NCBI GenBank assembly: GCA_040224245.1
Contig: JBEGIR010000017.1
Span: 3,611 to 67,610, forward strand
Origin: Puniceicoccaceae bacterium
Lineage (GTDB): Bacteria > Verrucomicrobiota > Verrucomicrobiia > Opitutales > JAFGAQ01
DNA length: 64,000 bases
Direction: 5' to 3'
This document shows, in pieces, positions 26,951-48,905 of the stretch; positions within the stretch are counted from its first letter, which is position 1, and every line of letters begins with the position of its first letter. The translations under genes were made by a program, and so were the position numbers. Under the pieces are notes generated by a model, which saw nothing but the letters and a program-made list of their open reading frames with translations, was not told the origin of the DNA and searched no databases.

Positions 26951-28486
<1,536 letters not shown>

Positions 28487-30289: not shown

Positions 30290-30319
30290 GGCGAACGGGG
30301 TAGGGGTGGGATGGGAAAA

Positions 30320-32275: not shown

Positions 32276-32781
32276 GCGGCTCCTCCTTTTTTCGCATGTT
32301 CCAGAATATCCTGAAGTTGGCTGGAGATGACGCGACCGTAGGTTTTTTCGTCCACCACCATGGCGGGTGCCATGCCGCAGCAGCCGATGCAGCGCACGGT
32401 TTCCAGGTGAAATTCCCGATCCTCGGTGGTTTCTCCTTCCTTGATGTGCAGCTTGCGTTCGAGTTCCTCAATCAACTGGGGTGCCCCCTTGAGGTAGCAG
32501 GCAGTGCCATTGCAGAGCGCGACGCTGTGTTTGCCGGGGGGAACGAGTTTGAAGTAGTTGTAGAACGTGAGCACTTCATAGATGCGAGCGAGCGGGATGC
32601 CCAGTTCGCACGCCAGTTCCATCGAAATTTCACGGGGCACGTAGCCGTGCTCGTTTTCAATGGAATGCAGAATCATGATGAGGTTTCCCTCCTCATGTTT
32701 CCACGGTTTTACGTGTTTGGAGACTTCGACCTCGACGCGCTCACAGTCGTCGATCGGATAGGTCAGAGAGGCGGTATTCAT
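32272..32781 (-). CDS. hydC: NuoE-like 2Fe-2S subunit (HydC)
   Basis: From the ATG at 32781: ...EISMELACELGIPLARIYEVLTFYNYF...ALCNGTACYLKG...RCIGCCGMAPAMVV. 4-nt overlap with hydB. Confidence 0.85.
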   Translation of the reverse strand: MNTASLTYPIDDCERVEVEVSKHVKPWKHEEGNLIMILHSIENEHGYVPREISMELACELGIPLARIYEVLTFYNYFKLVPPGKHSVALCNGTACYLKGAPQLIEELERKLHIKEGETTEDREFHLETVRCIGCCGMAPAMVVDEKTYGRVISSQLQDILEHAKKGGAA

Positions 32782-33071
32782 GGGGTAGATCCTTTCGACA
32801 AAAGCGATTGTGCGGCAGCTCCTTGTCGTCGCAAGGGGGAAAGGCTGTGGGCTTCGGGTAGTGCGACAGCTAATTTCATGCATAAGGGATGCCGCATGCA
32901 TGCTTCGAAAATGGAAACTCCGCTCAGCGCGCAAATCCGGATCTGACGGTTGGAATGCGATTCGGGTCAAATGCGCTTGTATTTCACGGTTTGGCTTTTT
33001 ACATTTGCCCTTTCCTGCATCATGCGCGTAGCGGTGATGCGAATGTTTACCCCCTGAAACAATCTTGTTCT

Positions 33072-34202: not shown

Positions 34203-34520
34203 GCGATACGAGGCATTGCAGCTTCACCCTTAGCGGGGTTTGGGGAAATTCTGATTCGGTCGCAGTGGCGTGCCTTGGCTACGCTTGCCGATGGTGAAGG
34301 TGCACCCCGTCTGATAGGGGGAAACAGGGATAGGGATTGGCGTGCCCACGGATCCGGTTCGCCAAGGCAAACCCCTGCACAAAAGCAATGAATCTGTGCC
34401 CACGATGAGGGGTGCAGGTTCGGGACTTCTCCACACTTTTCGATTTGAACATTGACCTTTTCTGTGAGGAATTCATTACTACGGTAACGATTCTTGCAGA
34501 AACAATGATCAAACCGAACG

Positions 34521-35054
34521 ATGGATGACGTTTTTCCCATGGCCCGCGAGGCCGATGATGCGATGCAAGCCCTCAGCTATGAGTTGCGGGTGTTGAGCGC
34601 GATTCGGCGCATTGCGCGCTCGGTGGATGTCTATTCAAAACGGGTATCTCAGCGCTATGGCGTGACGGTGCCACAATTGATCTGTCTATTGCGAATCGAC
34701 GAAATGGGGTCGCTTTCCATCAAGGAATTGGCGACCGCGGTGAATTTGAGTCCAAGTGTGGTGGTCGGGATTGTCGACCGCCTTGAGAAGCAGGAGTATG
34801 TCGTGCGGGAGCGGTCCATTCGTGACCGTCGCATCGTGCGTGTGCTGCTGACGGAACGGGCCAAAGCATTGATTGCAAATTCACCCTCCCCATTGCAGGA
34901 AAACCTCAAAGCGGCAGTCGGAAAGTTGCCGGAACTGGAACGCGCCACCATTGCGCTCTCTTTGGAAAAAGTCTGCGCCTTGATGGAGTCAGAGCGGGTC
35001 AACCCGGAGATGCAGGGCAGCGATGCCGCTCTTCTGGATATCGCTACGGTCTGA
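34521..35054 (+). CDS. MarR-family transcriptional regulator
   Basis: Winged-HTH pattern: VTVPQLICLLRIDEMGSLSIKELATAVNLSPSVVVGIVDRLEKQEYVVRERSIRDRR. Confidence 0.8.
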   Translation: MDDVFPMAREADDAMQALSYELRVLSAIRRIARSVDVYSKRVSQRYGVTVPQLICLLRIDEMGSLSIKELATAVNLSPSVVVGIVDRLEKQEYVVRERSIRDRRIVRVLLTERAKALIANSPSPLQENLKAAVGKLPELERATIALSLEKVCALMESERVNPEMQGSDAALLDIATV

Positions 35055-35163
35055 ATTCGCGGGCAGATTCATGAGGTTTCCCACAGGCATGGACGTTGCT
35101 GAGTCGACGTGGCTTCGCGTTTCCGCGAAGTGGCCTGAAACCCTACAACTACAAAACAAAACT

Positions 35164-36444
35164 ATGACTTGCACATTGATTCAATTGACAAAACGCAGCG
35201 TGGGCCTTGCCTCGCTCATCGCGGGTTTGCCCATGATGCTCATGGCGCAAAGCAGTGAAGAACTGCGCCAGCGCGTCGAACGCCTCGAGAGCGAACTGGC
35301 AGAAGCAAAAGCAGCACTCGCGAGTGCTGCGGATACAGGGCCATCCAAAATACAGCTCGGCAATCTGAGCATTGGAGGAGCGATGCGCGTCAACTATGTG
35401 ATTGGGGACTACGAGAGTGGTCCGGGAGCGACGCGCGGTTCCAGTGGCGGCAACATGATGCTCGATACCTTTCGCATCAATCTGGACTACGTGAAGGGGC
35501 CGTGGAGTGCGAAGGCCGAATACCGTTGGTACAATGGCTACAACATGCTGCACACCGGTTGGCTGGGTTACACCGGTGAAACCGATTGGAGTGTGCAGCT
35601 GGGAGTCAACCGTGTGCCCTTTGGTCCGGGTGCCTACGGAGTCTCCAACAGTTGGTTTTTTGATCAGCATTTTTACGTTGGACTTGCGGATGACATGGAT
35701 CTCGGGGTCAAATACACCACATCCCGGGGTGACCTGACCTGGGACTTTGCTTACTACGTATCGGATGAGGGCAATTATGTGGGTGCCTCCCGAGACTCTG
35801 CCCGCTATTCCTACGATCCGGTCATGTGGACCTACGAGGGGGAAAAACGCGGCTATGCGGAGCGGCATCAGGTCAACGCCCGTGTCATTGCGGATCTTTC
35901 GGACAGCACCGACTTGGGGGCCTCCCTGCAGGCGGGACTACTGGAGGGTGAGAAAAGCGACGATGGCAGCATGGTGGCAGGTTCGGTGCACATGGTGAAC
36001 ACCCTGGGCAAGTGGCGCGTCAACTCCCAGCTGACCTACTACAACTATGATATTGGTGCAGGTGCGACCGGGGATGATGAGTTGATTCCATTCGGAGCCT
36101 ACGATTATGCGTGGCCAATTGCGACCGAAGCGGTGATTCCTGCGATTGCGGTGAGCTACAGCGTGGATACGGGTCACCTGGACTGGCTGGATTCGCTGAC
36201 GCTCTACGCGGAGTACAGCTCGATCCTGAAGACGGGAAGCACGGCGGATGGAACCGACTTTAAGGACAGCTCGCTTGCAGTTCTCGGAGCCGCTTGGGCG
36301 CGCGGGGGATGGTACATTTACACCGATCTGGCATTTTCTGACGGAAATTATTTTGTCGGTCTGGACGATTTTACCACGCAGGGAGCGAACTTGAACGCCT
36401 CCTGGCAGAGCCGGTTGAACATCAATTTTGGCTACTATTTCTAG
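35164..36444 (+). CDS. Putative outer-membrane porin
   Basis: ATG at 35164. Signal-like N-terminus, a short coiled coil (ELRQRVERLESELAEAKAAL), an alternating beta-strand pattern, and C-terminal ...LNINFGYYF ending in an aromatic residue. Confidence 0.6.
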   Translation: MTCTLIQLTKRSVGLASLIAGLPMMLMAQSSEELRQRVERLESELAEAKAALASAADTGPSKIQLGNLSIGGAMRVNYVIGDYESGPGATRGSSGGNMMLDTFRINLDYVKGPWSAKAEYRWYNGYNMLHTGWLGYTGETDWSVQLGVNRVPFGPGAYGVSNSWFFDQHFYVGLADDMDLGVKYTTSRGDLTWDFAYYVSDEGNYVGASRDSARYSYDPVMWTYEGEKRGYAERHQVNARVIADLSDSTDLGASLQAGLLEGEKSDDGSMVAGSVHMVNTLGKWRVNSQLTYYNYDIGAGATGDDELIPFGAYDYAWPIATEAVIPAIAVSYSVDTGHLDWLDSLTLYAEYSSILKTGSTADGTDFKDSSLAVLGAAWARGGWYIYTDLAFSDGNYFVGLDDFTTQGANLNASWQSRLNINFGYYF

Positions 36445-36496
36445 GATTGGATTTCCACAGAAAACTCTTGCAACCCCTACAAACCATCAAGACGAC

Positions 36497-37702
36497 ATGA
36501 ATGTTCTCGAGGTTCGCAACCTGTACAAGATCTTCGGGCACAAGCCCGGGGATCGCGCCCTGCCCATGGTGAAAAATGGTGAAAGCAAGGCTACCATTCT
36601 CAAAAAAACGGGCTGTACGGTCGGCATCAACAATGCGACGTTCGATGTGAAAAAGGGAGAAATCTTTGTGATCATGGGACTTTCCGGCAGTGGAAAATCC
36701 ACCGTGATCCGCTGCCTCAATCGCTTGATCGAACCGACCGATGGCGAAGTGCTCATCGACGGGCAAAACATTGTGGATCTCGACGCCGAGCAGCTGCGCA
36801 GTGTGCGCCGGAAAAAACTGAGCATGGTCTTCCAGCGCTTCGGATTGTTGCCGCACCGCAGCGTGATCGACAACGTTGCCTTCGGGCTGGAGGTGCAGGG
36901 CATCGGCAAGGCGGAGCGTCATGAAAAGGCGATGCAGGCTATTCAAACTGTTGGATTGTCCGGCTACCAGGATCAGATGACGCAGGCACTCAGCGGCGGC
37001 ATGCAACAGCGGGTGGGGTTGGCGCGGGCATTGGCAAATGATCCCGAAATTTTGCTCATGGACGAGGCCTTTTCGGCACTTGATCCGTTGATTCGGGTGC
37101 AGTTGCAGGATGAGTTGCTCGAATTGCAATCGCGCATGCACAAGACGATCGTGTTCATCACGCATGATCTCGATGAGGCACTCAAACTGGGGTGTCGCAT
37201 CGCCATCATGAAAGACGGTGCCATTGTACAAATCGGCACACCGGAAGAGATCCTGACAGATCCCGCCAACCAGTATGTGCAGGATTTTGTGGAAAATGTG
37301 GACCGTTCCCGTGTGATCACAGCTGGCAGCATCCTGCGCAAGACGAAGGTCGCCTACGAGTCGTATGGGCCACACCAGTGCCTGCGCATGATGAAGGAGT
37401 TTGGATCGTCAACGCTCTTTGTTGTGGATGAAAACCGCCACTTCAAAGGATACATCACGGTCGATGCCGCTGCCGAACTGGCCAAGACCGTTCTACCGGC
37501 AGAGGATGAACAAAAGAACAAGCACATCCGTTCCATCATACAGACGGATGCACCCACGGCACCGGAGAGCGCGGCCATTGCCGATATTGTGGGGGATGCA
37601 TCGCGAACCGCACTGCCCATTGTGGTGCTTGGGGATGCCGAACCCGAGTTTCGCGGCATTGTCAGCCGCCCTGCCATCCTTGCCGCCCTGTCTGGAGACT
37701 GA
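36497..37702 (+). CDS. proV: Glycine betaine/proline-type ABC transporter ATP-binding protein with C-terminal CBS pair
   Basis: GLSGSGKST, LSGGMQQRVGLARAL, LLMDEAFSALD, and a CBS-like C-terminal ~120 aa. The ATG at 36497 is used. Confidence 0.85.
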   Translation: MNVLEVRNLYKIFGHKPGDRALPMVKNGESKATILKKTGCTVGINNATFDVKKGEIFVIMGLSGSGKSTVIRCLNRLIEPTDGEVLIDGQNIVDLDAEQLRSVRRKKLSMVFQRFGLLPHRSVIDNVAFGLEVQGIGKAERHEKAMQAIQTVGLSGYQDQMTQALSGGMQQRVGLARALANDPEILLMDEAFSALDPLIRVQLQDELLELQSRMHKTIVFITHDLDEALKLGCRIAIMKDGAIVQIGTPEEILTDPANQYVQDFVENVDRSRVITAGSILRKTKVAYESYGPHQCLRMMKEFGSSTLFVVDENRHFKGYITVDAAAELAKTVLPAEDEQKNKHIRSIIQTDAPTAPESAAIADIVGDASRTALPIVVLGDAEPEFRGIVSRPAILAALSGD

Positions 37703-37706
37703 TACC

Positions 37707-39014
37707 ATGGAATTACCTGTTGGAGAAGTATTTGAATCCCTCATCCGCTGGCTGAAGGCGAATCTGGGTGAACTGTTTGACGCGATCAGCGCGACCATCA
37801 ATTTTGCGATCCTGTTGCTGGAACGCATCCTCTCGGTAGAGGCGGGTGTGCTGTTTCCCATGTTGTTCATGACGCTGCTCATCGCGGGTCTCTGTTTCGG
37901 ACTGTTGTCCCGCAAGTTGCCGTGGAAGCAAGCCCTTGCAGCCGGGGTTGCTGTGATGATCGCCGGCATCCTATTGCACAACTGGCGCAGCCATCGCCTG
38001 ACGCAAACAGTGACCGCTGATCAGCTGACAACCCTGCACGCGGGTATTGCCCAGGTCGAAGACCAGCTGGCACAGGCTCCAGACGCCCTGCGTGAGACGG
38101 TTGATGCACCCTCCGGGCAGCGTGAACTGTCACGGGTTCGCACGCAGATCGAACGCGCGAATGCGGGTGAAGCGTTGACCAGTGTGCTCAGCCTGAGCAA
38201 TTACCAGCGTTCACGCGCCTTTCTGGATCGACTTGCAATGGGGCAGGGTCCGCTCGCCGAGTCTGCTGCGACACTGTCTGCATCACTGGCGGATCTGAAT
38301 CCAGCACCCCTGCCGTGGTTTTCCTGGGCGGTGACGTCCCTGTTGCTGATCCTGCTTGCATGGTATGGAGCAGGTAGGGGACTGGCAATTTTCACCTTAA
38401 TCGGTTGCGGACTCATCCAGTCGATGGGGTTCTGGGAACCGACTGTGGAAACGCTGGCACTTGTGATTTCGGCCACTGCATTTGCGCTGCTGATCGGAGT
38501 GCCGCTGGGTATCGCTGCGGCGGCAAGCCAGATTGTGGACCGCGTGTCCAAACCCGTGCTCGACTTCATGCAAACGATGCCGGCATTCGTGTATTTGATC
38601 CCGGCGGTCTTGTTTTTTGGACTGGGCAAGGTACCCGGTGCGATTGCGACATTGATTTTTGCCATGCCACCCGCCGTGCGCCTCACCAGTCTGGGAATTC
38701 GTGGAGTGCCAACCGAAGTCGTGGAGGCCGCGCAGTCCTTCGGGTCGACACCGATGCAACTGCTGTTTAAGGCGCAACTGCCGATCGCGTTGCCCACGAT
38801 CCTGGCCGGACTGAATCAGACCATCATGCTGGCCCTGTCGATGGTGGTGATTGGGGGCATGATCGGGGCCGGAGGACTCGGAGAGGTTGTGCTCAGTGGC
38901 ATCACCCAACTCAAAATCGGACTGGGATTCGAGAGCGGACTGTCGGTTGTGATCCTTGCGATCTACCTCGACCGCCTCACCCAGTCCATCGGAAGTATCA
39001 GTGAGAAACGCTGA
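37707..39014 (+). CDS. proW: Glycine betaine/proline-type ABC transporter permease, with a long N-terminal extension
   Basis: The C-terminal half has the BPD_transp_1 pattern (MQTMPAFVYLIPAVLFFGLGKVPGAIATLIFAMPPAVRLT...EAAQSFGSTPMQLL). ATG at 37707. Confidence 0.85.
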   Translation: MELPVGEVFESLIRWLKANLGELFDAISATINFAILLLERILSVEAGVLFPMLFMTLLIAGLCFGLLSRKLPWKQALAAGVAVMIAGILLHNWRSHRLTQTVTADQLTTLHAGIAQVEDQLAQAPDALRETVDAPSGQRELSRVRTQIERANAGEALTSVLSLSNYQRSRAFLDRLAMGQGPLAESAATLSASLADLNPAPLPWFSWAVTSLLLILLAWYGAGRGLAIFTLIGCGLIQSMGFWEPTVETLALVISATAFALLIGVPLGIAAAASQIVDRVSKPVLDFMQTMPAFVYLIPAVLFFGLGKVPGAIATLIFAMPPAVRLTSLGIRGVPTEVVEAAQSFGSTPMQLLFKAQLPIALPTILAGLNQTIMLALSMVVIGGMIGAGGLGEVVLSGITQLKIGLGFESGLSVVILAIYLDRLTQSIGSISEKR

Positions 39015-39050
39015 ATCGACCTAAATTAAACCCAAAAACTCAAACTGTTT

Positions 39051-39959
39051 ATGAAATCAAAGAAACTGAAAATGACACTACATACCCTGATCCTGAGTGC
39101 GATGACCTTGGGATTCACAGGATGTCAACCCACCGCAAACGACAACACCGGATCTGGCGCTGAAGCCGCTGGAGCGGAGGAACCCAAGGTGGCAAATCTG
39201 GCCTATGTCAACTGGGCTGAAGGGGTGGCCTACACCCACCTCGCCAAAGTGGTTCTCGAGGAAAAAATGGGCTATGAAGTCAACCTGACCATGGCCGATG
39301 TGGGACCTGCCTACATGGCGGTTGCTGACGGCAACCAGGATGCTTTCATGGAGTGCTGGCCGGGCATTCATCAGGACTATCTCAACGAAGTGGGGGATCG
39401 CCTGGTGGACCTGGGAGTGGTCTATGAGGGAACCTCGCTGGGACTGGTTGTTCCCAGCTATGTCACCATTGACAAGATTTCGGAACTCAATGCGCACAAG
39501 GACAAGTTCAAGGGCGTGATTACCGGAATTGACTCGGGTGCCGGCATGATGCGCCAGACGGCAGACTACATCATCCCGGAATACGAGCTTGAGCTGGAAC
39601 TCGTGCCCTCCAGCGGACCGGCCATGACGGCCGCATTGTCCGCCGCTGTGGAAGCAGGGGAGTGGATTGTGGTTACCGGATGGCGGCCGCACTGGATGTT
39701 CGGGCGCTGGGATCTCAAGATTCTTGAGCAGGATGCTGACAAGACGGTCTGGGAAGAAGGCAGCATTCACATCCAGGGACGGGCGGATATTGCTGAGGAT
39801 AAGCCAACCCTGGCGGCCTTCCTCAAGAACATGCATCTCACGGATCCCCAGCTCAGTGACCTGATGGTGAAGATTGAAGATTCGGACTACGAAGTGGTGG
39901 AAGTCGCACGGGAGTGGATGTATGCCAACGAGTCCGTCGTGGATGCCTGGATTCCCTAA
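39051..39959 (+). CDS. proX: Glycine betaine-type substrate-binding lipoprotein (OpuAC/ProX family)
   Basis: Lipobox LGFTGC. WAEGVAYTHLAKVVLEEKMGY, WPGIHQDY, GIDSGAGMM. Confidence 0.8.
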   Translation: MKSKKLKMTLHTLILSAMTLGFTGCQPTANDNTGSGAEAAGAEEPKVANLAYVNWAEGVAYTHLAKVVLEEKMGYEVNLTMADVGPAYMAVADGNQDAFMECWPGIHQDYLNEVGDRLVDLGVVYEGTSLGLVVPSYVTIDKISELNAHKDKFKGVITGIDSGAGMMRQTADYIIPEYELELELVPSSGPAMTAALSAAVEAGEWIVVTGWRPHWMFGRWDLKILEQDADKTVWEEGSIHIQGRADIAEDKPTLAAFLKNMHLTDPQLSDLMVKIEDSDYEVVEVAREWMYANESVVDAWIP

Positions 39960-40082
39960 CCCCGTAGCAGTTTGCCGGTCTCCTTGCCGGGCAAATGCCT
40001 GAATCCAGAGATCGGTGTTGCTGCGACAAACCCGAAAAAACCAGCAAGGGAGAGCGGCTTGCTCTGATACTTTATCCCGCCC

Positions 40083-40577
40083 ATGAAAACAACCTGTTGT
40101 TACGCCCTGTTGTGCCTGTGTCTCGGTCTCAGTACCCTGACGGCACAAGATCGCGAACCTGACGGTTCGCTCCAACTGCTTGTACCGGAGACATCTCCGG
40201 TCGTGAGCACGGATGGGACGCTCTCGCTCCGGTGGACGGATGCCGGAGCGCAGTCCAACTATCGACTCGAACGCAGCCGGGATGCCCAGTTCAGCGATTC
40301 GCTGACGATTTATGAAGGGGCCGATCTTGGCACCTTTGTTTCCGGTATGACGGCTGGAGTGTGGCACTACCGCCTGAGCGCGCTGGATGCAGAATCGGGT
40401 GAACCCGTGCCGGGAACCAAACCCGTTTTGACAGAAGTGCGTGTCGAGTTTGTTTCCGCACGACAAGTCGTATGGCTGATGAGTGCGGGAGCGGTCACGC
40501 TGGTGTGCATTGTCGGATCGGTACTGACGGGATATCGCCGGTATCGCGGTTGGAATCTCAACGCGGAGGCATCATGA
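40083..40577 (+). CDS. Hypothetical exported protein with C-terminal TM anchor (possible FN3-like fold)
   Basis: Signal peptide MKTTCCYALLCLCLGLSTLTA and TM helix VVWLMSAGAVTLVCIVGSVL. The stop overlaps the symporter start (ATGA). Confidence 0.5.
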   Translation: MKTTCCYALLCLCLGLSTLTAQDREPDGSLQLLVPETSPVVSTDGTLSLRWTDAGAQSNYRLERSRDAQFSDSLTIYEGADLGTFVSGMTAGVWHYRLSALDAESGEPVPGTKPVLTEVRVEFVSARQVVWLMSAGAVTLVCIVGSVLTGYRRYRGWNLNAEAS

Positions 40578-42007
40578 GGGTATTGCAGGAAGAAACGATA
40601 CTCGATCCCAATGTGGGCTGGATACTGCTTGCGCTGTTTGGAGTGCTCTGGGTCGGACTGGGATTTTATTGGGGGCGCAAAGCGCAAAACCTCGACGGCT
40701 TCATGCTCGCGGGTCGTAACGTGGGGCTGGCACTGGGAACAGCGACCGCGATGGCCACCTGGGTGACCTCGAATACGGTGATGCTCGCTCCGCAGTTTGC
40801 CCTGCAGATGGGAATCTGGGGCATGCTGGCCTACGCCACTGCGAGCTTTGGTCTCTTTCTCTTTGCGCCAATGGCGATCCGCATCCGTCAGCTGATTCCC
40901 AAAGGCTACACCAGTGGAGACTTTATCCGACTGCGCTATGGTCCAGTGGCATGGGCCTTGTTTCTGCTCATTTCCATGGTCTATTCCATGGCTTGGCTGG
41001 TGAGCATGGCCATGGCAGGTGGCATCGTGCTGCAGGCCCTGGCGGGCATCCCCTACATCTGGGGCATGAGTGTGATTTTGATCGTTTGCGTGCTTTATAC
41101 CCTTGTGGGTGGACTCTATGCGGTCATTGGCACGGATTTCATCCAGAGCGTGATCATCCTTATCGGTGTTCTCGTGATTGGAGTGGTGGCCATGACGCGG
41201 GTCGATTTTGGCGCTGCCTATGAACGCATCGCGACGGTGCAGCCCGGATTGTTAATGGTCTTCATGCCAGTGGCACTGCTCTCGCTGTTCAACAACATGT
41301 TTTTCGGCTTTGGAGAAGTTTTCCACAACAACGTGTGGTGGACGCGTGCGTTTGCGATCCGCCGGGACGAAGTGGGCAAGGCCTTTTTGCTCTCCGGATG
41401 TTTCTGGCTGCCCATTCCGATTGCGGCAGGCTTTATCGCTTTGTTTAGCGGTTCGCTGGGCATCAATGTGACCGATGTGGACATGGTCGGACCCCTTGTG
41501 GCGGGTCATGTGCTGGGTCCGGTCGGTGCGATGGTGGTGTTTGTGGTCGTGTTCTGTTCCCTGGGTTCGAGCATCGACAGCCTGCTCGCCTCCACATCGG
41601 ACCTCCTGGCGGAGGATGTGTATAAAAAACTGCTGCGCCCCGATATCGAGGATGACACACTGCGCCGTGCGACCTCCTGGATCATTGTGGGACTGGGTAT
41701 TGTGACATGGTTCCTGTGTGCGCCGCGCCTTGGGAATTTGGTCACGGTGCTTTTTCTCTCGGGTCCGCTTGTGGGAAGTGCGATCTGGCCTGTGCTGACG
41801 GGCCTCTACTGGAAACGGGCCAATGCCTGGGGAGCCTGCTCGGCAATGGTGCTGGGAAGTGCGATCGGACTCTATGCCTACTTTTCAATCGGGTGGTTTG
41901 CCGCTACCCTCATTTCAACCGTCGTTTCCATGATTGTCGTGGTGGTGTTCACCTGGCTGCGCCCCGCCGATTTTGATTGGAAACAACTCTCCCGTGAAAG
42001 TCATTAA
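40574..42007 (+). CDS. Sodium:solute symporter (SSS) family transporter
   Basis: About 13 hydrophobic segments. The N-terminus WILLALFGVLWVGLGFYWGRKAQNLDGFMLAGRNVG is typical of the SSS family. Confidence 0.85.
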   Translation: MRVLQEETILDPNVGWILLALFGVLWVGLGFYWGRKAQNLDGFMLAGRNVGLALGTATAMATWVTSNTVMLAPQFALQMGIWGMLAYATASFGLFLFAPMAIRIRQLIPKGYTSGDFIRLRYGPVAWALFLLISMVYSMAWLVSMAMAGGIVLQALAGIPYIWGMSVILIVCVLYTLVGGLYAVIGTDFIQSVIILIGVLVIGVVAMTRVDFGAAYERIATVQPGLLMVFMPVALLSLFNNMFFGFGEVFHNNVWWTRAFAIRRDEVGKAFLLSGCFWLPIPIAAGFIALFSGSLGINVTDVDMVGPLVAGHVLGPVGAMVVFVVVFCSLGSSIDSLLASTSDLLAEDVYKKLLRPDIEDDTLRRATSWIIVGLGIVTWFLCAPRLGNLVTVLFLSGPLVGSAIWPVLTGLYWKRANAWGACSAMVLGSAIGLYAYFSIGWFAATLISTVVSMIVVVVFTWLRPADFDWKQLSRESH

Positions 42008-42150
42008 TGCCTCAAGTGCTTGCCATCATGCAATTTTCAGAAAACTTGACTCAGTGGATCCTCTACGGCTCCCTCGCGCTCACCGCCCTTGCGCTGTGTT
42101 CCCTGTTGGTGCTGTTGTACCGCGATTTCATCCGTAAAAAAATCTGGTAA
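42007..42150 (+). CDS. Unannotated 47-aa single-TM protein (possible symporter small accessory subunit)
   Basis: Not in the ORF track because it is under 60 aa. The ATG shares its A with the symporter TAA stop (TAATG). Sequence: MPQVLAIMQFSENLTQWILYGSLALTALALCSLLVLLYRDFIRKKIW. Confidence 0.4.
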   Translation: MPQVLAIMQFSENLTQWILYGSLALTALALCSLLVLLYRDFIRKKIW

Positions 42151-42154
42151 GACC

Positions 42155-43246
42155 ATGACTATGTTTCAAAACCTGGAACCCAATAAAATCGCTCCCAACC
42201 TCAAGCCTCCCGAGGGGTCGGAGCACCTGCACCCGCAGGCCAGAGCGTTATTTGAGGAGAATCCCATCAACGTTCAGGTTCTCAGCAAGCTGGAGAATGA
42301 GTCCATTCTCAAAGTGAAGCAGTTTGACAAGGAAACGGTCATCGAGCTCGCAAAGTTGGCAGCGATTTTGGAAGACTTCCACATCGCACCCTATCACGTG
42401 CTGGACGGCAAGATCGCCACGACCGCATTTTTTGAGGCGAGCACTCGTACACGACTCTCCTTTGAGAGCGCAGTGCAGCGCCTGGGAGGACGCATCCTGA
42501 GCATTCCCGAAGGGGGAGTGACCGGAGTCAAAAAGGGCGAATCCCTCGAAGACATTGGTGAAATGTTCAATGCCTATTGTGACATGGTGATCATGCGTCA
42601 CACCGAGACGGACTGCCTGAAACGCATCCTCAAACACCTTCGGGTTCCGCTCATCAATGCTGGAAACGGCACCGGTGAACACCCGACCCAGGCACTCGCC
42701 GACTGGTATGCCCTACTGAAATGGAGACCGGGTCTGGCTGACGAAAAGGATGACAAGATGCTCAATCTGGGCATCCTTGGTACTCCCGGGCAGATGCGCG
42801 CAGTGAAGAGTTTTCTTCTGATGTCGCTATTGTTCCGGCGTAAGATTCGCAAGGTCACGGTGATCTCGGAAATGGCGGATCCCTTTGGACTCGACATCAC
42901 CGAAGCACTGGACGGCGCGGACATCGACTATGAGGTGACCAATGATATTCAGGAGGCCCTCCCGACGCTGGATGTGATCTACATGAACTCGATCGCACTG
43001 CTTGGGGAGAGCTATCAACAGCTTGGCAATCGCTACATGCTCAACAGCGAGAGCAAACTCAAACCGGAGTCTGTGATCCTGCATCCACTGGCGCGGCTCA
43101 AAGAGCTGGACACTTCCCTCGATAACACCCAGCACAACCTGTATTTCACGCAGGCCCATGGTGCGGTGTTCATTCGGCAGGCACTGTTGATATCGGTCTT
43201 TGGCCGACTCGACCGCCTGCCCGACGACATCCCCCTTCTCAAGTAA
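42155..43246 (+). CDS. Aspartate/ornithine carbamoyltransferase-family protein (divergent, ATCase-like)
   Basis: FEASTRTRLSFE (STRTR), GEHPTQALAD (HPTQ), and LHPLARLKE in place of the canonical HPLPR. ATG at 42155. About 45 extra N-terminal residues. No pyr neighbours. Confidence 0.75.
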   Translation: MTMFQNLEPNKIAPNLKPPEGSEHLHPQARALFEENPINVQVLSKLENESILKVKQFDKETVIELAKLAAILEDFHIAPYHVLDGKIATTAFFEASTRTRLSFESAVQRLGGRILSIPEGGVTGVKKGESLEDIGEMFNAYCDMVIMRHTETDCLKRILKHLRVPLINAGNGTGEHPTQALADWYALLKWRPGLADEKDDKMLNLGILGTPGQMRAVKSFLLMSLLFRRKIRKVTVISEMADPFGLDITEALDGADIDYEVTNDIQEALPTLDVIYMNSIALLGESYQQLGNRYMLNSESKLKPESVILHPLARLKELDTSLDNTQHNLYFTQAHGAVFIRQALLISVFGRLDRLPDDIPLLK

Positions 43247-43370
43247 GGAGGGCTGTTGCTGTTTTCTGAATCGGACCCGGCCTGATGGTCGAGTCCGTCT
43301 GTTGAATGGATTTCATTTTACCTTGCCAACGCCGGGGCAACATTAACCGGCGAACCCATACCTAAATATC

Positions 43371-45320
43371 ATGTGCGGAATCGCAGGAGTCTTCACCCGT
43401 CAACGCCTCGACAGCAGGCACGAACGCGCCATTGGCCCGATGCTGGAGCAAATCCGGCACCGTGGGCCGGACAGCCAAAAGCACTATGCCGATGCAGAGA
43501 ACGGTTTGCTGATGGGCCACACCCGTCTGATCATCAATGATTTTGCGACGGGCGAGCAGCCGTTATTTGAGGAACAGGGCGACCTGGTGCTCACCGTCAA
43601 CGGTGAGTTCTATGATTTCAAGAAACACCGCTCTCGTGCGATGGCAGAGGGACATCGGTTTGCCACAAAGTCGGACAGTGAAGTGGTGCTTCCGCTCTAC
43701 CGCAAACACGGGCTCGCTTTTACGGAGCACTTGCGCGGTGAGTTTGCCTTTACGCTCTTCGACCGCAAGAAGCAGGAGCTGATCCTGGTGCGGGACCGTT
43801 TTGGCATTCGTCCGCTCTTTTTTCATCTCAGCAACGACACGTTGGTCTATGGTTCTGAGGCCAAGGCGGTGTTGGCCCATCCGGACGTGCCGCGACAGAT
43901 CGACCCCAAGGCAGTGATGCACCAGATGATGCAGACCACGGTCCCGGGCATGTCGTCGTTTGTCGGTATTCGCGCGCTGGAACCTGGGCGCATGTTGCGT
44001 GTTCGCAGGACAGCAGATCGCCTTGAAGTCAGCGAACACAGCTACTGGGACTACGAATTTCCCGAGATGGAAGCACGCGAACCCATGAGCGAAGAAGCTG
44101 CCATTGAGCAGGTGAGGGAAAAGCTGATTGAGTCGATTGTGCTGCGGCTGGAGGCGGATGTGCCCGTCGGTTGTTATCTCTCAGGTGGCATCGACAGCTG
44201 TTGCATTCTGGGTCTTGCAAGCGGGGCGATGCAGAGTCCGGTGAAGGCGTTCACGATCAGCTTTGATCATGACTCCTATGACGAGTCTGCCATTGCGGTG
44301 GAAATGGCGCAATCGATGCAGGCCGATCATGAGATGATTCGATTGCAGGCCGATGATTTGTATGGCGACAACTACGTGAATACGGTTTTCCATGCGGAGC
44401 GCTCCTTCTACAATACGCTGGGTGTGGCCAAGAATCTCATGAGCCGCCGCGTTTGGCAGTGTGACTACCGCACTGTGATTACGGGTGAAGGGGCGGATGA
44501 GCTGTTTGCAGGTTATCCCGCACTCAAGCGCGATCATTTTCTGCACGGATTGAAGCACCTGCCTGAAAAGGAACGCCAGTTACTGCACGCCCAGCTCGAA
44601 AAATCGAATCAGCTGTTTAAAGGTGCCATCCTCGCTGAGGATCAGCTTTCGCATCCGGCATTTGATGATATTTGCGGGTTTACGCCTTCGTGGATTCAAC
44701 CCTGGATGGCGACACTGGAGTTGATCAAGCCCCTTCTGAGCGCCGATGTGAAGGCTGCTCTGGGCAGTTATGATCCGATTGAGGGCATCGTGGAGAAACT
44801 GGATGCGGGCATGATCCGTGGCCGCCATCCACTCGATATGGCCCAGTACACCTGGAGCAAAACCCAGCTGGAGGGTCAGATCTTGAACTGGGGTGGAGAC
44901 CGGGTGGACATGGCGAACTCCATGGAGTCGCGACCCGCCTTTCTCGACCATCACCTCGCACAGGTGGCAACGCGCATCCCGCCAGAGTATCGCATCAAGG
45001 GGAACACTGAAAAATGGGTGTTGCGCGAAGCGGTGAAGGGTGTACTGCCAGAGGTGCTTTACAAGCGCGAGAAGTTTGCATTCATGGCACCGCCGGCCCA
45101 TACGGACCCCTCGAAGAAGCGACGCCTGCAGGAACTGCTCGACACCTATGTCAACGAAAGCCGAATTCGCACCGCCGGACTTTTTGATCCGGTTGCAGTG
45201 AAACACTTTCTCGAAGCCTATCATGCGGACCAGGATCCGGTGTCCCTGACGCGCAAGGACACAGTGGTCAACCATCTGCTCTGCCTGCAGATCATGGATT
45301 CGCTCTTCATTCAGCGCTGA
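43371..45320 (+). CDS. Asparagine synthetase B-like glutamine amidotransferase
   Basis: N-terminal nucleophile MCGIAGVF, GHTRLIINDF, the PP-loop CYLSGGIDSC, and VITGEGADELFAGY. Confidence 0.85.
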   Translation: MCGIAGVFTRQRLDSRHERAIGPMLEQIRHRGPDSQKHYADAENGLLMGHTRLIINDFATGEQPLFEEQGDLVLTVNGEFYDFKKHRSRAMAEGHRFATKSDSEVVLPLYRKHGLAFTEHLRGEFAFTLFDRKKQELILVRDRFGIRPLFFHLSNDTLVYGSEAKAVLAHPDVPRQIDPKAVMHQMMQTTVPGMSSFVGIRALEPGRMLRVRRTADRLEVSEHSYWDYEFPEMEAREPMSEEAAIEQVREKLIESIVLRLEADVPVGCYLSGGIDSCCILGLASGAMQSPVKAFTISFDHDSYDESAIAVEMAQSMQADHEMIRLQADDLYGDNYVNTVFHAERSFYNTLGVAKNLMSRRVWQCDYRTVITGEGADELFAGYPALKRDHFLHGLKHLPEKERQLLHAQLEKSNQLFKGAILAEDQLSHPAFDDICGFTPSWIQPWMATLELIKPLLSADVKAALGSYDPIEGIVEKLDAGMIRGRHPLDMAQYTWSKTQLEGQILNWGGDRVDMANSMESRPAFLDHHLAQVATRIPPEYRIKGNTEKWVLREAVKGVLPEVLYKREKFAFMAPPAHTDPSKKRRLQELLDTYVNESRIRTAGLFDPVAVKHFLEAYHADQDPVSLTRKDTVVNHLLCLQIMDSLFIQR

Positions 45321-45335
45321 GTTGAGATTGTGATC

Positions 45336-46598
45336 ATGCCTGAGACCGATGCAAACCCGCCTCGCGTTCGCCTGGAACGCCTGAAATCCCACGTGGAGGA
45401 ACTTGCGCAGTTTGGTCGCAACGAGAGTGATGGTGCGCTTTATCGCACAGCTTTTTCGGATGCGGACCTCGAAGCGAGACGCTGGTTGATCGGAAAACTG
45501 GAAGCACTGGGACTGCCTGCGCAAATGGATGGGGCTGGCAACGTGAAGGCGTTGCTCAAGGGAAGCGGAGACCGGCCTCGATTGGTCGTGGGATCGCACA
45601 CCGATACTGTACCGCGCGGGGGAGCACTGGACGGTAGTCTGGGCGTGCTCAGTGCGCTGGAGTGCCTGCAGACCCTGATGGATGCGAACTGGATACCGGA
45701 GAGGGATATTGAATTGGTGGCGTTCAGCGATGAAGAGGGTCGCTTTGGCGGCATGTTTGGTTCGGAGGCCTATTGCGGAAAAGTAACGCCAGAACGCCTG
45801 GAGTATTACTGTGAGGCTGAGGAGCAGACCTTGCGACAGGCGATGCAACAGCAGGGAATGGATCCCGAAGCGGCCTTGTCTGTGGGGCAGGATCCCTCAC
45901 AAATCGCGGGCTATCTGGAGTTACACATCGAGCAGGGGCCGGTCTTGCACCACCTGGGTAAGCAAGTGGGCATCGTTCAGGCGATCACCGGACTCTTCAA
46001 GTGGCGGGTGTGTCTGGTGGGACAGAGCAATCACGCGGGTACGACACCGATGAACCTGCGGCAGGATGCGCTCATGGGACTCGCAGAGTTTGCGTTTTCG
46101 GTATCGCGGGTTCTGGAGGAATATGGCACTGAGGAGAGTCGTGCAACGATTGGGCGCGCCCAGATTTTGCCCGGTGCTGCAAACACGGTTCCGGGATTTG
46201 TGGAATTCACCCTGGATGTTCGTGACCCGAACCCCGAGATTCTCCGGGAACTGGAGCAGGCCTTTGCCCGATCTTTACGGGCAATTTGCCAGCGCCGCAG
46301 TTTGGGCTGTGAGCGCGAGCAGCTGAGTTGGATTCCGCCGGTTTCCTGCGATCCGGAAATGGTCGCTCTGCTGGAAAGCTCAGCGCGGAAACGGGGACTT
46401 CAGGCGCATTGCATGAACAGTGGAGCAGCGCACGATGCCCAAATCATGGCGAATCTGACTCGCATCGGCATGATTTTTGTGCCCAGTAAAGCGGGCTTGA
46501 GCCATGACCCCGGTGAATATACGGAATGGAGTGATATTGAGGCAGGTGCAAATCTCCTGCTTGAAATGATATTGCAGATGGATGCGAGGGTTGCCTGA
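45336..46598 (+). CDS. M20-family amidase of the hydantoinase/carbamoylase type (allantoate amidohydrolase / N-carbamoyl-L-amino-acid hydrolase-like)
   Basis: VVGSHTDTVPRGGALDGSLGV, AFSDEEGRFG, ELHIEQGPVL, GQSNHAGTTPM, SGAAHDAQ. Confidence 0.8.
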   Translation: MPETDANPPRVRLERLKSHVEELAQFGRNESDGALYRTAFSDADLEARRWLIGKLEALGLPAQMDGAGNVKALLKGSGDRPRLVVGSHTDTVPRGGALDGSLGVLSALECLQTLMDANWIPERDIELVAFSDEEGRFGGMFGSEAYCGKVTPERLEYYCEAEEQTLRQAMQQQGMDPEAALSVGQDPSQIAGYLELHIEQGPVLHHLGKQVGIVQAITGLFKWRVCLVGQSNHAGTTPMNLRQDALMGLAEFAFSVSRVLEEYGTEESRATIGRAQILPGAANTVPGFVEFTLDVRDPNPEILRELEQAFARSLRAICQRRSLGCEREQLSWIPPVSCDPEMVALLESSARKRGLQAHCMNSGAAHDAQIMANLTRIGMIFVPSKAGLSHDPGEYTEWSDIEAGANLLLEMILQMDARVA

Positions 46599-46644
46599 GG
46601 CAGCCGTTCCTGCATCTGAGAAATCGAATTTTGAAAACAATATA

Positions 46645-47376
46645 ATGAGTGCCGCACCCAGTGATCCCCTGAAACAAATCTACCACGAATCGATCGTGGA
46701 CCACCCGATGCATTTTAAGCAGTTGTCCAACGCGGGCACTGCACTGCTCTGCATCGACTTGCAGTACCTGGATGCCGCCGAGGGCTACGGAGTGTTTCAA
46801 AATCCCGAGGTGTCGGGAGTCAGTGAACAGGATCGGCGCTACTATTTTGACACACTCAATGGTTATGTGCTGCCAAACGTGCGTCGATTGCAGGATGCAT
46901 TTCGCACCCATGGGCTTGAGGTGATTCATGTGCGCATTCAGGCACTGACTCAGGATGGACGGGACCGTTCAACAGGACACAAGCGGCTGCAGCTGCTTGC
47001 ACGACCCGGCTCCCGCGAGGCGGATTTTCTCGAGCAAATCGAACCGCAGGGAGACGAAATCGTGATCAACAAGACCGCCAGTGGGGTGTTTTCCTGTACG
47101 AACCTTCACTACGTGCTCAAGAACATGGGAGTAGGGGCATTGTTTGTGGTCGGCGTCTACACCAATGAATGCGTAGAGACGACGATCCGGGACGCCTGCG
47201 ATCTCGGATATTCCGTGACGATGGTGGAAGATGGCTGCACAACAGTGACTGAGATGCTGCACCGCGCCTCCATCGCGACACTCAAGGACCGCTACGCACG
47301 TGTGATTTCGACGCAACAGGCGATCGAGGATATCCAGACCTATGTGGATACACCTGGCAGTGCAGCGCAGTCATGA
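46645..47376 (+). CDS. Isochorismatase-family cysteine hydrolase
   Basis: ALLCIDLQ (Asp), INKTASGVF (Lys) and VVGVYTNECVETT (Cys) form the catalytic triad pattern. ATG at 46645. Confidence 0.8.
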   Translation: MSAAPSDPLKQIYHESIVDHPMHFKQLSNAGTALLCIDLQYLDAAEGYGVFQNPEVSGVSEQDRRYYFDTLNGYVLPNVRRLQDAFRTHGLEVIHVRIQALTQDGRDRSTGHKRLQLLARPGSREADFLEQIEPQGDEIVINKTASGVFSCTNLHYVLKNMGVGALFVVGVYTNECVETTIRDACDLGYSVTMVEDGCTTVTEMLHRASIATLKDRYARVISTQQAIEDIQTYVDTPGSAAQS

Positions 47377-47545
47377 GAAATTCCCTCAAGGGCAATGGAT
47401 CGATGTGCCGAATATAGTACACATTTTGTGATATTTTGAAGGGGGAACATTGTTTCCATTCATGGGCACGGTAGTGTCACATCGTGGACGTTGCGAGCGG
47501 CAGGTGCCGCTCGGATGACACGATCCCAACTCAACCCCGAATATC

Positions 47546-48781
47546 ATGAAACAATTGCTGCGTAATCGGATTTGCGGTGCCCTGGTGGCGTCGCTTACCT
47601 GCTTGCTTCCCTCTTCCCTTCTGCAGGCGCAGAAGTTTGAGGGGCTGGCCCTGACTCCACCCATGGGGTGGAACTCGTGGAATACCTTTGAGAGCCACAT
47701 CAACGAACAACTCGTCAAGGATACTGCGGAAGCGATGATTCGCACCGGTATGCGTGATGCTGGCTATGTTTACATCGTGCTCGATGACTGCTGGTCGCTC
47801 AGGGAGAGGGATCCTGAGGGAAATCTGGTTGCTGATCCTGAGAAATTTCCAAGCGGCATGAAAGCCCTTGCAGACTACTTGCATGAGCGTGGATTCAAGT
47901 TTGGCATCTACGGTTGTGCGGGCAAGACAACCTGTGCCGGGTATCCCGGAAGCATGGGCCATGAGTATCAGGATGCCCGGACATTTGCGTCGTGGGGTGT
48001 GGATTATTTGAAATACGACTGGTGTGCCACCGGAACACGCGATGCAATCGAGGCCTATACGACGATGCGGGATGCGCTCTATCAAGCTGGGCGTCCGATT
48101 GTGTTCAGTCTCTGCGAGTGGGGAACCGCCGATCCCTGGCTTTGGGGCAAGCAGGTCGGGCACCTCTGGCGTGTGTCGGGCGATATTTATGACTGCTGGG
48201 ACTGCGAACAGGAGTGGTCGCGCGGATGGAAGTCAATTCTGGACCTGTACCACAACAAAAAGCCTTCGAGTGGCGGAAGGGATGGTCTGGGACAGTACTC
48301 AGGGCCGGATGGCTGGAACGACCTCGACATGATGGAAGTGGGCAATGCCGGACTCAGCACCATTGAATCGCGCTCGCATTTTGCGCTGTGGTGCATGGTG
48401 GCCTCACCCTTGATGGCTGGCAATGACCTGCGCATCATGTCCGACGAGATCGCAGCGATACTGACAGACAAAGAGGCACTTGCGATCAATCAGGATCCAC
48501 TCGGAGTACCTGGGTGGCGCTATGGCATCGTGCCGGATAAGTATGAAATCTGGATTCGTCCGCTGGAGGGGGGAGACTGGGCGGTGTGTGTGCTCAACGA
48601 CAGTGACCAGGATCTCGACATCACCCTGGAGTGGGAACGCCTCGAGCGACACCTTTCCGGTCACTTCGAAATCTTTGACATCTGGGATAAACAGTCACTA
48701 GGCACGAACGAAGGAGCACTCTCCAAGCGTGTCAAATCTCACGACACCTGGTTCATGCGACTGAGTAATCGTGCGGGCTGA
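47546..48781 (+). CDS. Alpha-galactosidase (GH27)
   Basis: Signal peptide. LTPPMGWNSWNTF, YIVLDDCW, FGIYGCAG, LKYDWC, EWG. Confidence 0.85.
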   Translation: MKQLLRNRICGALVASLTCLLPSSLLQAQKFEGLALTPPMGWNSWNTFESHINEQLVKDTAEAMIRTGMRDAGYVYIVLDDCWSLRERDPEGNLVADPEKFPSGMKALADYLHERGFKFGIYGCAGKTTCAGYPGSMGHEYQDARTFASWGVDYLKYDWCATGTRDAIEAYTTMRDALYQAGRPIVFSLCEWGTADPWLWGKQVGHLWRVSGDIYDCWDCEQEWSRGWKSILDLYHNKKPSSGGRDGLGQYSGPDGWNDLDMMEVGNAGLSTIESRSHFALWCMVASPLMAGNDLRIMSDEIAAILTDKEALAINQDPLGVPGWRYGIVPDKYEIWIRPLEGGDWAVCVLNDSDQDLDITLEWERLERHLSGHFEIFDIWDKQSLGTNEGALSKRVKSHDTWFMRLSNRAG

Positions 48782-48905
48782 TACCCTTTATGCTGTAAAC
48801 AACTGAGTTTTGAAACATCGGCTGGGGAATGCCAGCCGATGAGGCCTATGGGCCGGGACTCCGCGCGCATTGCGCTTGCGCAATGGGTGCCATTGCACGA
48901 GGCTG

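Follow-up and report, generated by a model that had tools for sequence, protein, structure and literature searches.

We analysed a stretch of 64,000 nucleotides (hereafter the window) from the metagenome-assembled genome (MAG) of a Puniceicoccaceae bacterium of the phylum Verrucomicrobiota (contig JBEGIR010000017.1), in which an initial annotation had singled out a run of twelve plus-strand genes (positions 34521–47376; Table 1) as a candidate locus for making, importing and breaking down a carbamoylated and amidated amino acid. The run encodes a MarR-family regulator, an exported protein described as a porin, a ProV-ProW-ProX importer (ProVWX), a second exported protein (p164), a sodium:solute symporter (SSS), a small membrane peptide and four enzymes: a relative of aspartate carbamoyltransferase (ATCase), hereafter ATC-like; an AsnB-like glutamine-dependent amidotransferase; an amidase of the M20 hydantoinase/carbamoylase family (M20); and an isochorismatase-like cysteine hydrolase (Iso). 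All twelve open reading frames (ORFs) were present at the coordinates listed beforehand, and the description of them as co-directional and closely spaced was confirmed, with gaps of at most 124 bp or overlaps of 1–4 bp between neighbours; the gene starts used for these distances were those called on an identical contig (L001), and the two contigs carry the same genes. Domain calls, made with Pfam and NCBIfam and with scores set against curated cut-offs, upheld the assignments proposed for MarR, ProV (with its CBS domain), ProW, ProX, the symporter and the four enzymes. The sequence features named for the enzymes were likewise all found (STRTR, HPTQ, HPLAR and about 45 extra N-terminal residues in ATC-like, MCGIAG and SGGIDS in the amidotransferase, and the D/K/C triad in Iso).

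Relatives of ATC-like were encoded on 309 stretches in a scan of one genome per species, and the best 80 of these, nearly all from Verrucomicrobiota, were examined; the twelve window proteins were run by tblastn against the fetched loci. In each of the loci with sufficient flanking sequence (72/72), the SSS gene shared the strand of the ATC-like gene and lay directly upstream of it, and the AsnB-like gene lay directly downstream of ATC-like in 68/68 loci. A single-transmembrane (TM) peptide of 39–41 aa was found between SSS and ATC-like in 74/75 loci, so that the 47-aa peptide called in the window is a real gene. In most loci, an exported and membrane-anchored protein of about 160 aa preceded the symporter (a homologue was recovered in 52/80 loci by ORF clustering). 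Of the 65 loci in which the point could be decided, 57 had M20 close to the module, normally together with Iso, and a few loci carried M20 with Iso undetected, some of them ending at a contig edge. The M20 and Iso genes were co-directional and downstream in 30 loci (this locus included), divergent and upstream in 23, convergent and downstream in four, and absent within 9–10 kb of the module in eight. The break point always fell between AsnB-like and M20/Iso.

The conserved unit is a module of seven genes (p164, SSS, peptide, ATC-like, AsnB-like, M20 and Iso) and not of twelve, and it consists of two sub-units, p164-SSS-peptide-ATC-AsnB and M20-Iso. The co-occurrence expected of the four enzymes was thus recovered, with ATC-like and AsnB-like adjacent throughout and M20 and Iso moving as a separate pair. 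However, the reading of the whole twelve-gene cluster as one system was too wide, since MarR, the 'porin' and ProVWX lie outside the conserved unit; likewise, of the uptake systems placed alongside the enzymes, SSS belongs to the conserved unit, whereas ProVWX is a lineage-specific addition. Among the fetched loci, only that of this MAG has ProVWX and the 'porin' beside the module. About ten loci (approximately a tenth) have a MarR homologue next to the module; these homologues, with 39–61% identity, flank it in Pelagicoccus (L003), in Stieleria (L097, divergent) and in about eight other loci. All-against-all ORF clustering of 80 loci revealed no further family present in more than 11 loci. 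Sulfatase, transketolase, NuoN, an RRM protein and other recurrent neighbours were considered as partners and rejected, because they reflect lineage synteny or are antisense artefacts. The gene order of the module was found in about 90 independent loci and is absent from 76 loci with canonical ATCases, which were a by-product of a metagenome scan with the family profile and generic patterns and were reused as a control; no homologue of AsnB-like, SSS, M20 or Iso was found near canonical pyrB in these 76 loci.

Table 1. Genes of the twelve-gene run, with their positions in the window and the distance from each gene to the next.
Gene or product	Position	Strand	Distance to next gene	Features
MarR-family regulator	34521..35054	+	gap 110 bp	PF01047 56.7 bits; first gene of the co-directional cluster
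Exported protein, possible outer-membrane porin	35164..36444	+	gap 52 bp	signal peptide, coiled coil; outside the conserved module
ProV/OpuAA-type ABC ATPase, C-terminal CBS domain	36497..37702	+	gap 4 bp	TIGR01186, PF00005, PF00571
ProW/OpuAB-type permease	37707..39014	+	gap 36 bp	PF00528 (BPD_transp_1) 85 bits
ProX/OpuAC-type lipoprotein binding protein, betaine type	39051..39959	+	gap 123 bp	PF04069 199 bits
p164, exported, C-terminal membrane anchor	40083..40577	+	overlap 4 bp	translationally coupled to the symporter; first gene of the module
Sodium:solute symporter (SSS family)	40574..42007	+	overlap 1 bp	PF00474 97.6 bits
Small single-TM membrane peptide	42007..42150	+	gap 4 bp	likely true start 42028 (internal Met), giving 40 aa
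ATCase-like transcarbamylase, distinct family (ATC-like)	42155..43246	+	gap 124 bp	PF02729 (OTCace_N) and PF00185 (OTCace)
AsnB-like glutamine-dependent amidotransferase	43371..45320	+	gap 15 bp	GATase_6/7 and Asn_synthase; TIGR01536 401 bits
M20 hydantoinase/carbamoylase-family amidase	45336..46598	+	gap 46 bp	TIGR01879 370 bits
Isochorismatase-like cysteine hydrolase (Iso)	46645..47376	+		PF00857 122 bits (cut-off 27)

A scan of positions 34000–47800 for promoters and terminators gave counts that were not above those of shuffled controls, and Rfam, run over the whole window, identified one tRNA only and no riboswitch in the cluster. Two long antisense ORFs, 39078–40466 (−; 462 aa, over ProX and p164) and 44580–45848 (−; 422 aa, over AsnB-like and M20), were rejected as genes and attributed to composition; their equivalents in related loci had generated false 'families' in the clustering (clusters 6–8, 11 and 12).

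ATC-like is, by its scores, its substrate-site residues and its neighbours, not a normal PyrB, because it falls below the equivalog cut-offs, has lost the residues that hold the aspartate beta-carboxylate and has no pyr neighbours. It scored 172–173 bits against the PyrB equivalogs (TIGR00670 and NF002032; cut-offs 237 and 263), and was also below the cut-offs of the models for OTCase (96 bits, cut-off 306), PTCase (63 bits, cut-off 500), YgeW (27 bits, cut-off 453) and AOTCase. The ornithine-site motifs SMG and HCLP were not found in the ATC-like alignments A1 to A3. The AlphaFold2 (AF2) model of ATC-like (predicted local distance difference test, pLDDT, 85.8) had the ATCase fold, with Foldseek template-modelling scores of 0.80–0.88 to solved ATCases at 25–31% identity. 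Alignments with solved and canonical ATCases showed that the protein keeps STRTR, KKGES (the Lys84 loop), MRH (Arg105), HPTQ and the equivalent of Arg167, which in ATCase is the arginine for the alpha-carboxylate. In ATCase, the T-R-V-Q-K-E-R segment carries Arg229 and Gln231, the ligands of the aspartate beta-carboxylate. This segment is replaced with an invariant NSIA(F/L)LG(D/E)SY in the ATC-like family, in which HPLPR has also become HPLAR. The 240s-loop motif N[SAV][IL] was present in 101/101 family members, whereas 71/76 canonical enzymes had TR.Q, and HPLAR was present in 96/101 members, against HP.P in 76/76 canonical enzymes. The family members have in addition a distinct genomic setting: pyrI was found in 29/76 and dihydroorotase (pyrC) in 12/76 control loci, but neither was found near the ATC-like family loci, save one amidohydrolase match in the biosynthetic cluster of L093. 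These results agree with the initial annotation, which had described a divergent ATCase-like protein without pyr neighbours, and the comparison of its active site with those of PyrB, OTCase and PTCase places the divergence: the carbamoyl-phosphate site is kept and the beta-carboxylate ligands are replaced. The window protein has an N-terminal extension of about 45 residues.

We propose that ATC-like is an N-carbamoylating enzyme that would add a new substrate class to the transcarbamylase superfamily. It is unlikely, given these features, to be the only pyrB of its genome; no canonical pyrB was found in the 1.6 Mb of fetched loci, which amounts to a chance search of fetched DNA and not of whole genomes. 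RefSeq names the family 'aspartate/ornithine carbamoyltransferase family protein' or 'hypothetical protein', and submitters and older pipelines label it 'aspartate carbamoyltransferase'. A tblastn search of plasmids recovered only canonical pyrB genes with less than 40% identity, and a literature search for uncharacterised transcarbamylase families and for this combination of enzymes returned nothing relevant. In alignment A2, a sister clade (P0135, P0141, P0143 and P0144) contained ATCase-like proteins of about 357–374 aa with degenerate carbamoyl-phosphate motifs, in which S-TRTR is replaced with SRTR, PQIR or SETR, KGES is lost, and HPTQ is replaced with NPSH, NPTH or HPTN. These proteins could be pseudo-enzymes or could use another donor substrate.

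The four enzymes look active, because their catalytic motifs are at least 95% conserved across 40–70 orthologues. The AsnB-like protein exceeded the TIGR01536 cut-off of 267 and scored 281 bits against the AsnO model TIGR03104 (cut-off 570). In 70 orthologues, its MCGI, HRGPD, NGEFY, SDSE and SGGIDS motifs show conservation of at least 95%, and the protein diverges in step with ATC-like, with 48–55% identity in distant relatives. We propose it as the enzyme that would amidate a carboxylate. M20 exceeded the TIGR01879 cut-off of 204 and that of NF006771 (478 bits, cut-off 399); its best match in the PDB was the L-carbamoylase 3n5f (E 2e-75), and the di-metal ligand motifs GSH.D, DEEG, ELHIEQGP and SGAAHDAQ are kept in its orthologues, features from which it is proposed to be an N-carbamoyl-L-amino-acid hydrolase. 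The third-best NCBIfam match of M20 was ErtE, an N-carbamyl-L-glutamate amidohydrolase (361 bits, cut-off 520), which is weakly suggestive of a solute based on glutamate or glutamine. Iso was remote from BiuH (63 bits, cut-off 370), RutB (57 bits, cut-off 378) and PncA/nicotinamidase (39 bits, cut-off 174). Among its neighbours in the PDB are RutB, N-carbamoylsarcosine amidase and the hydrolases of triuret and biuret, all of which cleave the terminal amide of a ureido compound (biuret, triuret, ureidoacrylate or carbamoylsarcosine), a group of substrates chemically close to an N-carbamoyl amino-acid amide. The Asp/Lys/Cys triad (CID.Q, NKTASGVF and GVYTNECV) is conserved in 40 orthologues and aligns with 3hb7, and the protein has an insertion of about 40 residues near its N-terminus. 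We propose that Iso acts as an amidase on a terminal amide.

The symporter is a divergent member of the SSS family, with 95 bits against the PutP model (cut-off 515) and a score also far below the cut-off for PanF. The small peptide that follows it has a single TM segment and a conserved C-terminus, ..(R/K)DW(K)xGxLW (e.g. L003, 9874–9999), and is probably an accessory subunit of the symporter; its conservation beside this transporter extends over several phyla, it was called as a gene in L088, L095, L096 and L097, and several gene callers miss it. For p164, a signal peptide and a C-terminal TM segment were read from the sequence, and no Pfam or NCBIfam family matched. Its homologues are weakly conserved (23–40% identity) but fixed in position, with equivalents of 148–182 aa in L088, L095, L096 (8007–8471) and L097 (7737–8279), and it may be a second accessory subunit.

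The ProVWX genes encode, by their family and structure matches, a conventional betaine-type OpuA importer and are an add-on specific to this lineage. ProV scored 438 bits against TIGR01186 (cut-off 327) and has ABC and CBS domains, and the best matches of ProW were choline- and ProW-type permease models, below their cut-offs. The best PDB matches of ProX were the glycine-betaine binders 3tmg, 2b4l and 7ahc, and its three Trp-box positions align with those of 2b4l and 3tmg. ProVWX was considered as the transporter of the pathway itself and ruled out, the betaine Trp box being intact and the genes having no link to the module in the other fetched loci. The coupling of osmolyte-type transporters to the enzymes, put forward in the initial annotation, therefore holds in part: the betaine importer is real, but its link to the module is confined to this MAG. 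The 'porin' label rests on a signal peptide, an N-terminal coiled coil and a C-terminal ...NINFGYYF, all of which are indeed present, but no Pfam, NCBIfam or PDB match was obtained; its single-sequence AF2 model had a pLDDT of 31, and no homologue was found in about 90 other loci.

Homologues of ATC-like with 61–87% identity are abundant. A search of 1.84 billion cluster representatives revealed only a few clusters at 50% identity that belong to the ATC-like clade, and the next matches were ordinary ATCases with an identity of about 35%; relatives with 40–56% identity keep the family signature. The family includes members from Planctomycetota (Stieleria maiorica and Roseiconus spp.), marine Nitrosomonas (N. 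marina and N. aestuarii) and Bacteroidota (Reichenbachiella, Rapidithrix, Flexithrix, Flavilitoribacter, Lewinellaceae, Saprospiraceae and Chitinophaga japonensis), together with members from Spirochaetota, a cyanobacterium, Zixibacteria, Calditrichaeota and Holophagales. The ATC-like/AsnB-like pair persists in distant relatives with 43–61% identity. Two of them, L095 (ATC-like 56% identical to that of the window) and L088 (47%), have the order p164-type protein, SSS, peptide, ATC, AsnB and M20. In N. marina (L096; 51%), a divergent beta-aspartyl-peptidase-like gene is followed by p154-SSS-peptide-ATC-AsnB and a convergent gene for an MscK-like channel. In S. maiorica (L097; 56%), a divergent MarR gene precedes a co-directional series of GSMT (491 bits, cut-off 350), SDMT-like, BCCT and p180-SSS-peptide-ATC-AsnB-M20-Iso. 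The marine contig L091 (47%) carries carA-carB-ATC-like-AsnB-like as one co-directional block (5568–12929), with an ATC-like protein of 316 aa that lacks the N-terminal extension and a GgpPS-like synthase/phosphatase fusion 2.4 kb upstream; the position of carAB directly upstream fits the use of carbamoyl phosphate in the synthetic direction. The actinobacterial relatives L090 (10001–21008; Actinophytocola sp.) and L093 (1499–20719) are 42–46% identical to ATC-like, with an AsnB-like partner in L090. Their clusters contain JmjC/Cupin_8, TenA, APH kinase, dCMP-deaminase-like, thymidylate-synthase-like, PfkB/ThiD-like kinase, nucleoside 2-deoxyribosyltransferase and SAM_HAT genes, and resemble a natural-product pathway, so far uncharacterised, for a nucleoside or pyrimidine.

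We suggest that the module serves to make, import and break down a ureido-amide solute, which is probably a compatible solute, and regard this make/import/break reading as about evenly poised between right and wrong. What follows on the reactions and their order, on which solute is made and on its osmotic role is what we infer from the genes. On the synthetic side, ATC-like would transfer the carbamoyl group of carbamoyl phosphate onto the alpha-amino group of an amino acid other than aspartate, with a side chain that would lack a carboxylate. AsnB-like would then adenylate the free carboxylate of the carbamoylated product and amidate it with ammonia freed from glutamine at its N-terminal cysteine, and the end product would be an uncharged N-carbamoyl amino-acid amide. 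Uptake of the solute itself (by scavenging or recapture), or of a precursor, would depend on a three-part Na+ symporter formed by the exported protein of about 160 aa, the SSS and the 40-aa peptide, which would always be co-transcribed with the two enzymes. For degradation, Iso would remove the terminal amide and M20, an L-carbamoylase that would require a free carboxylate, would then strip the carbamoyl group, yielding the amino acid, CO2 and ammonia. The two bonds made by one enzyme pair would be those broken by the other, which matches the genomic break point between the pairs. In this MAG, the module would be fused, under MarR, with the OpuA-type glycine-betaine importer and the possible porin into one osmoprotection operon. 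The division into a make pair and a break pair had been anticipated, and it is consistent with the co-occurrence and active-site results, although the system covers fewer genes than the twelve then envisaged.

The osmotic context of the module comes from several loci. An OpuA-type importer lies between MarR and the module in the window; GSMT, SDMT-like and BCCT genes stand directly upstream of the module and co-directional with it in Stieleria maiorica; the MscK-like channel gene adjoins it in N. marina; and GgpPS-like genes were found near the module in L091 and L029, and an MscS-like gene in Pelagicoccus. The named isolates are nearly all marine, the MAGs include samples from soda and salt lakes, and the Nitrosomonas species among the matches listed are marine only. 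Literature searches on how Nitrosomonas marina or Rhodopirellula respond to salt found nothing relevant.

Several observations weigh against the make/import/break reading, of which the osmolyte role is the weakest step. A systematic search of neighbours identified osmotic marker genes beside the module in only about 6/93 loci, and the osmotic link is anecdotal; the habitat pattern of the hosts may be a sampling effect, and the soil isolate Chitinophaga japonensis carries the ATC-like family. The make and break genes are co-directional in 30 loci, and only 15 bp apart here, an arrangement pointing to co-expression and to a possible futile cycle. The distant relatives L088 and L095 have retained M20 but not Iso, which fits a biosynthetic role of M20 as well as a degradative one. 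The presence of L090 and L093 in nucleoside-type clusters indicates that the wider clade is not tied to one function, and no Ectothiorhodospira homologue was found among the named hits, in samples that were not exhaustive.

Other interpretations have to be set against the make/import/break system. The same ureido-amide chemistry could yield a product with no osmotic function (a nitrogen store, a signal, an antimetabolite or a secondary metabolite), the symporter and hydrolases serving for reuse or self-protection. The scarcity of osmotic neighbours (about 6/93 loci), the nucleoside-type clusters of the actinobacterial relatives L090 and L093 (JmjC, TenA, kinases, ThyA-like and SAM_HAT), the cost of a nitrogen-rich product for polysaccharide-degrading Verrucomicrobiota and the occurrence of the family in a soil Chitinophaga are all compatible with such a product. 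However, no other biosynthetic or export genes were co-conserved in the ORF clustering, both here and in Stieleria the module sits within operons for the uptake or synthesis of betaine, and the hosts are mainly marine, with only marine species of Nitrosomonas among the matches listed. We consider a non-osmotic product rather unlikely.

It is also conceivable that ATC-like, AsnB-like and M20 form a linear biosynthetic route in which the carbamoyl group is a transient N-protecting group, in the manner of the acetyl group in arginine synthesis. An amino acid would be N-carbamoylated, amidated and then deprotected by M20 to a free amino-acid amide, with Iso acting in editing or salvage. This arrangement would account for the position of M20 15 bp after AsnB-like in the window, for its co-directional orientation in 30 loci and for its retention without Iso in L088 and L095, and M20 deacylases of the ArgE/DapE type are established as deprotecting enzymes. 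However, M20 is absent within 9–10 kb in eight loci, and also in N. marina and L091, and it lies on the opposite strand in 27 loci, always with Iso. Furthermore, L-carbamoylases are known to need a free carboxylate beside the ureido group, which fits action after de-amidation. A linear route is distinctly unlikely.

A purely catabolic locus for an imported ureido or amide compound, which the initial annotation had named as an alternative and in which ATC-like would run in reverse (phosphorolysis to carbamoyl phosphate) and the hydrolases would release ammonia, would explain the dedicated importer and the two hydrolases, and catabolic OTCase and the putrescine and oxamate transcarbamylases are well known. 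However, carbamate kinase was not co-conserved in the ORF clustering, and the tightest partner of ATC-like is an ATP-consuming, glutamine-dependent amidotransferase with intact motifs. Together with carAB directly upstream in L091 and the core without hydrolases in an obligate chemolithoautotroph (L096, N. marina), these findings make a catabolic locus improbable. Finally, an ordinary housekeeping pyrB and asnB placed by chance beside transport and hydrolase genes, as the name given by submitters and older pipelines, the TIGR01536 match of AsnB-like and the pyr-operon-like order carA-carB-ATC in L091 might suggest, is highly improbable, since ATC-like is below all PyrB equivalog cut-offs and is no longer named as PyrB by RefSeq. 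Moreover, 101/101 family members have lost the R229/Q231 equivalents that canonical enzymes keep, pyrI and pyrC, which neighbour the control genes, are missing here, and SSS and AsnB-like hold their places beside ATC-like without exception in different phyla.

The make/import/break reading can be placed beside known systems. N-acetylglutaminylglutamine amide (NAGGN) is made by Ngg and AsnO, with the AsnB-like AsnO performing the final amidation. The solute proposed here would resemble NAGGN in being an osmolyte left uncharged by a masked amino group and an amidated terminal carboxylate, and a hydrolase gene is often adjacent to the NAGGN genes. The cap would nevertheless differ, being a carbamoyl group added by a transcarbamylase here and an acetyl group added by the GNAT/ATP-grasp Ngg in NAGGN; the AsnB-like protein is far below the AsnO cut-off (281 bits against 570), and a dedicated SSS is always attached here. 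No Ngg-type GNAT/ATP-grasp gene was co-conserved with the module in the ORF clustering of 80 loci. A closer chemical precedent would be N-alpha-carbamoyl-L-glutamine 1-amide (CGA), which has been known since the early 1990s as a compatible solute of Ectothiorhodospira marismortui. To our knowledge, CGA is the only known natural solute with both an N-carbamoyl group and a 1-carboxamide, and the literature searched assigned no genes to it. Its two modifications are those that the enzyme pair would install, a link made by chemical logic, and the identification of the product as CGA specifically is unlikely.

The individual proteins have known relatives, too. ATC-like shares with PyrB the fold (template-modelling scores as above), the carbamoyl-phosphate site (STRTR, K84, R105 and HPTQ) and the Arg167 equivalent, and differs from it in NSIA..GDSY, HPLAR, the extension of about 45 residues, the AsnB-like partner and the lack of pyr context. 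M20 belongs to the same subfamily as the L-N-carbamoylases (Geobacillus BsLcar, PDB 3n5f) and ErtE, with conserved metal ligands, whereas it differs from the carbamoylases of hydantoin utilisation in that the module has no hydantoinase or racemase partner, and from ErtE in its score (361 against a cut-off of 520). Iso shares with BiuH, TrtA, RutB and N-carbamoylsarcosine amidase the cysteine hydrolase family, the D-K-C triad and, as proposed, cleavage of the terminal amide of a ureido compound; it differs from the BiuH/RutB type in scoring far below the equivalog cut-offs and in its insertion of about 40 residues in the N-terminal region. ProVWX is similar to OpuA/ProU, with a CBS domain in ProV, a ProW and a Trp box in ProX. 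SSS transporters such as OpuE import osmoprotectants; the SSS of the module is a divergent member of the family and is accompanied by two conserved, probably accessory, proteins. The enzyme superfamilies and the concept of making, importing and breaking an osmolyte are already known, whereas the enzyme pairing, the specificity class of the transcarbamylase, the three-part SSS and the wide distribution were not described in the literature searched.

The remainder of the window contains other features. Carbohydrate-use genes typical of Puniceicoccaceae flank the cluster on both sides (32889–34202 and 47546–51724), and none of them was co-conserved with the module in the ORF clustering of 80 loci. 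Upstream, a 437-aa protein looks GH88-like from its translation; downstream, precomputed Pfam matches on the identical contig L001 identified a GH27 alpha-galactosidase (47546–48781) and a DUF1080/3-keto-disaccharide hydrolase-like protein (48870–49937), followed by an AraC regulator and a dienelactone hydrolase. Three genes on the minus strand (28526–32970) encode a 587-aa product with TSCCPAW, MPCTAKKFE and MACTGGCIGGGGQP motifs, then a 651-aa NuoF-like and a 232-aa NuoE-like protein, and read, from their translations, like an electron-bifurcating [FeFe]-hydrogenase. The region 1–28300 has a GC content of 0.41–0.50, against 0.55–0.59 elsewhere in the window, and a tRNA gene lies at 28206–28294 (−). 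It carries integrases (15880–16926 and 26951–28486), a MobA/VirD2 relaxase (17809–18999), a VirD4/TraG coupling protein (25002–26549) and, at 209–5069, an AAA_15/AAA_21 ATPase, a DEAD helicase and a T5orf172 protein. This region looks like an integrative mobilisable or conjugative element at a tRNA gene, with a probable defence cassette.

The fullest form of our proposal is a new compatible-solute pathway in mostly marine bacteria of at least eight phyla, with a new transcarbamylase class, a three-component SSS transporter and a product that is maybe CGA or a relative; we put it forward tentatively, as somewhat more doubtful than the make/import/break system itself. If it is correct, the label 'aspartate carbamoyltransferase' would be a systematic mis-annotation of this family, the correction of which would improve models of the pyrimidine pathway, and the transcarbamylase and AsnB-like enzymes would be a new pairing in osmolyte biochemistry that could give genes to the orphan solute CGA. 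Cultured hosts exist, including Stieleria maiorica, Haloferula luteola, Pelagicoccus spp. and Nitrosomonas marina. The proposal would also identify an organic solute that is rich in nitrogen and is served by a dedicated transporter and hydrolases, and this solute may matter for marine dissolved organic nitrogen.

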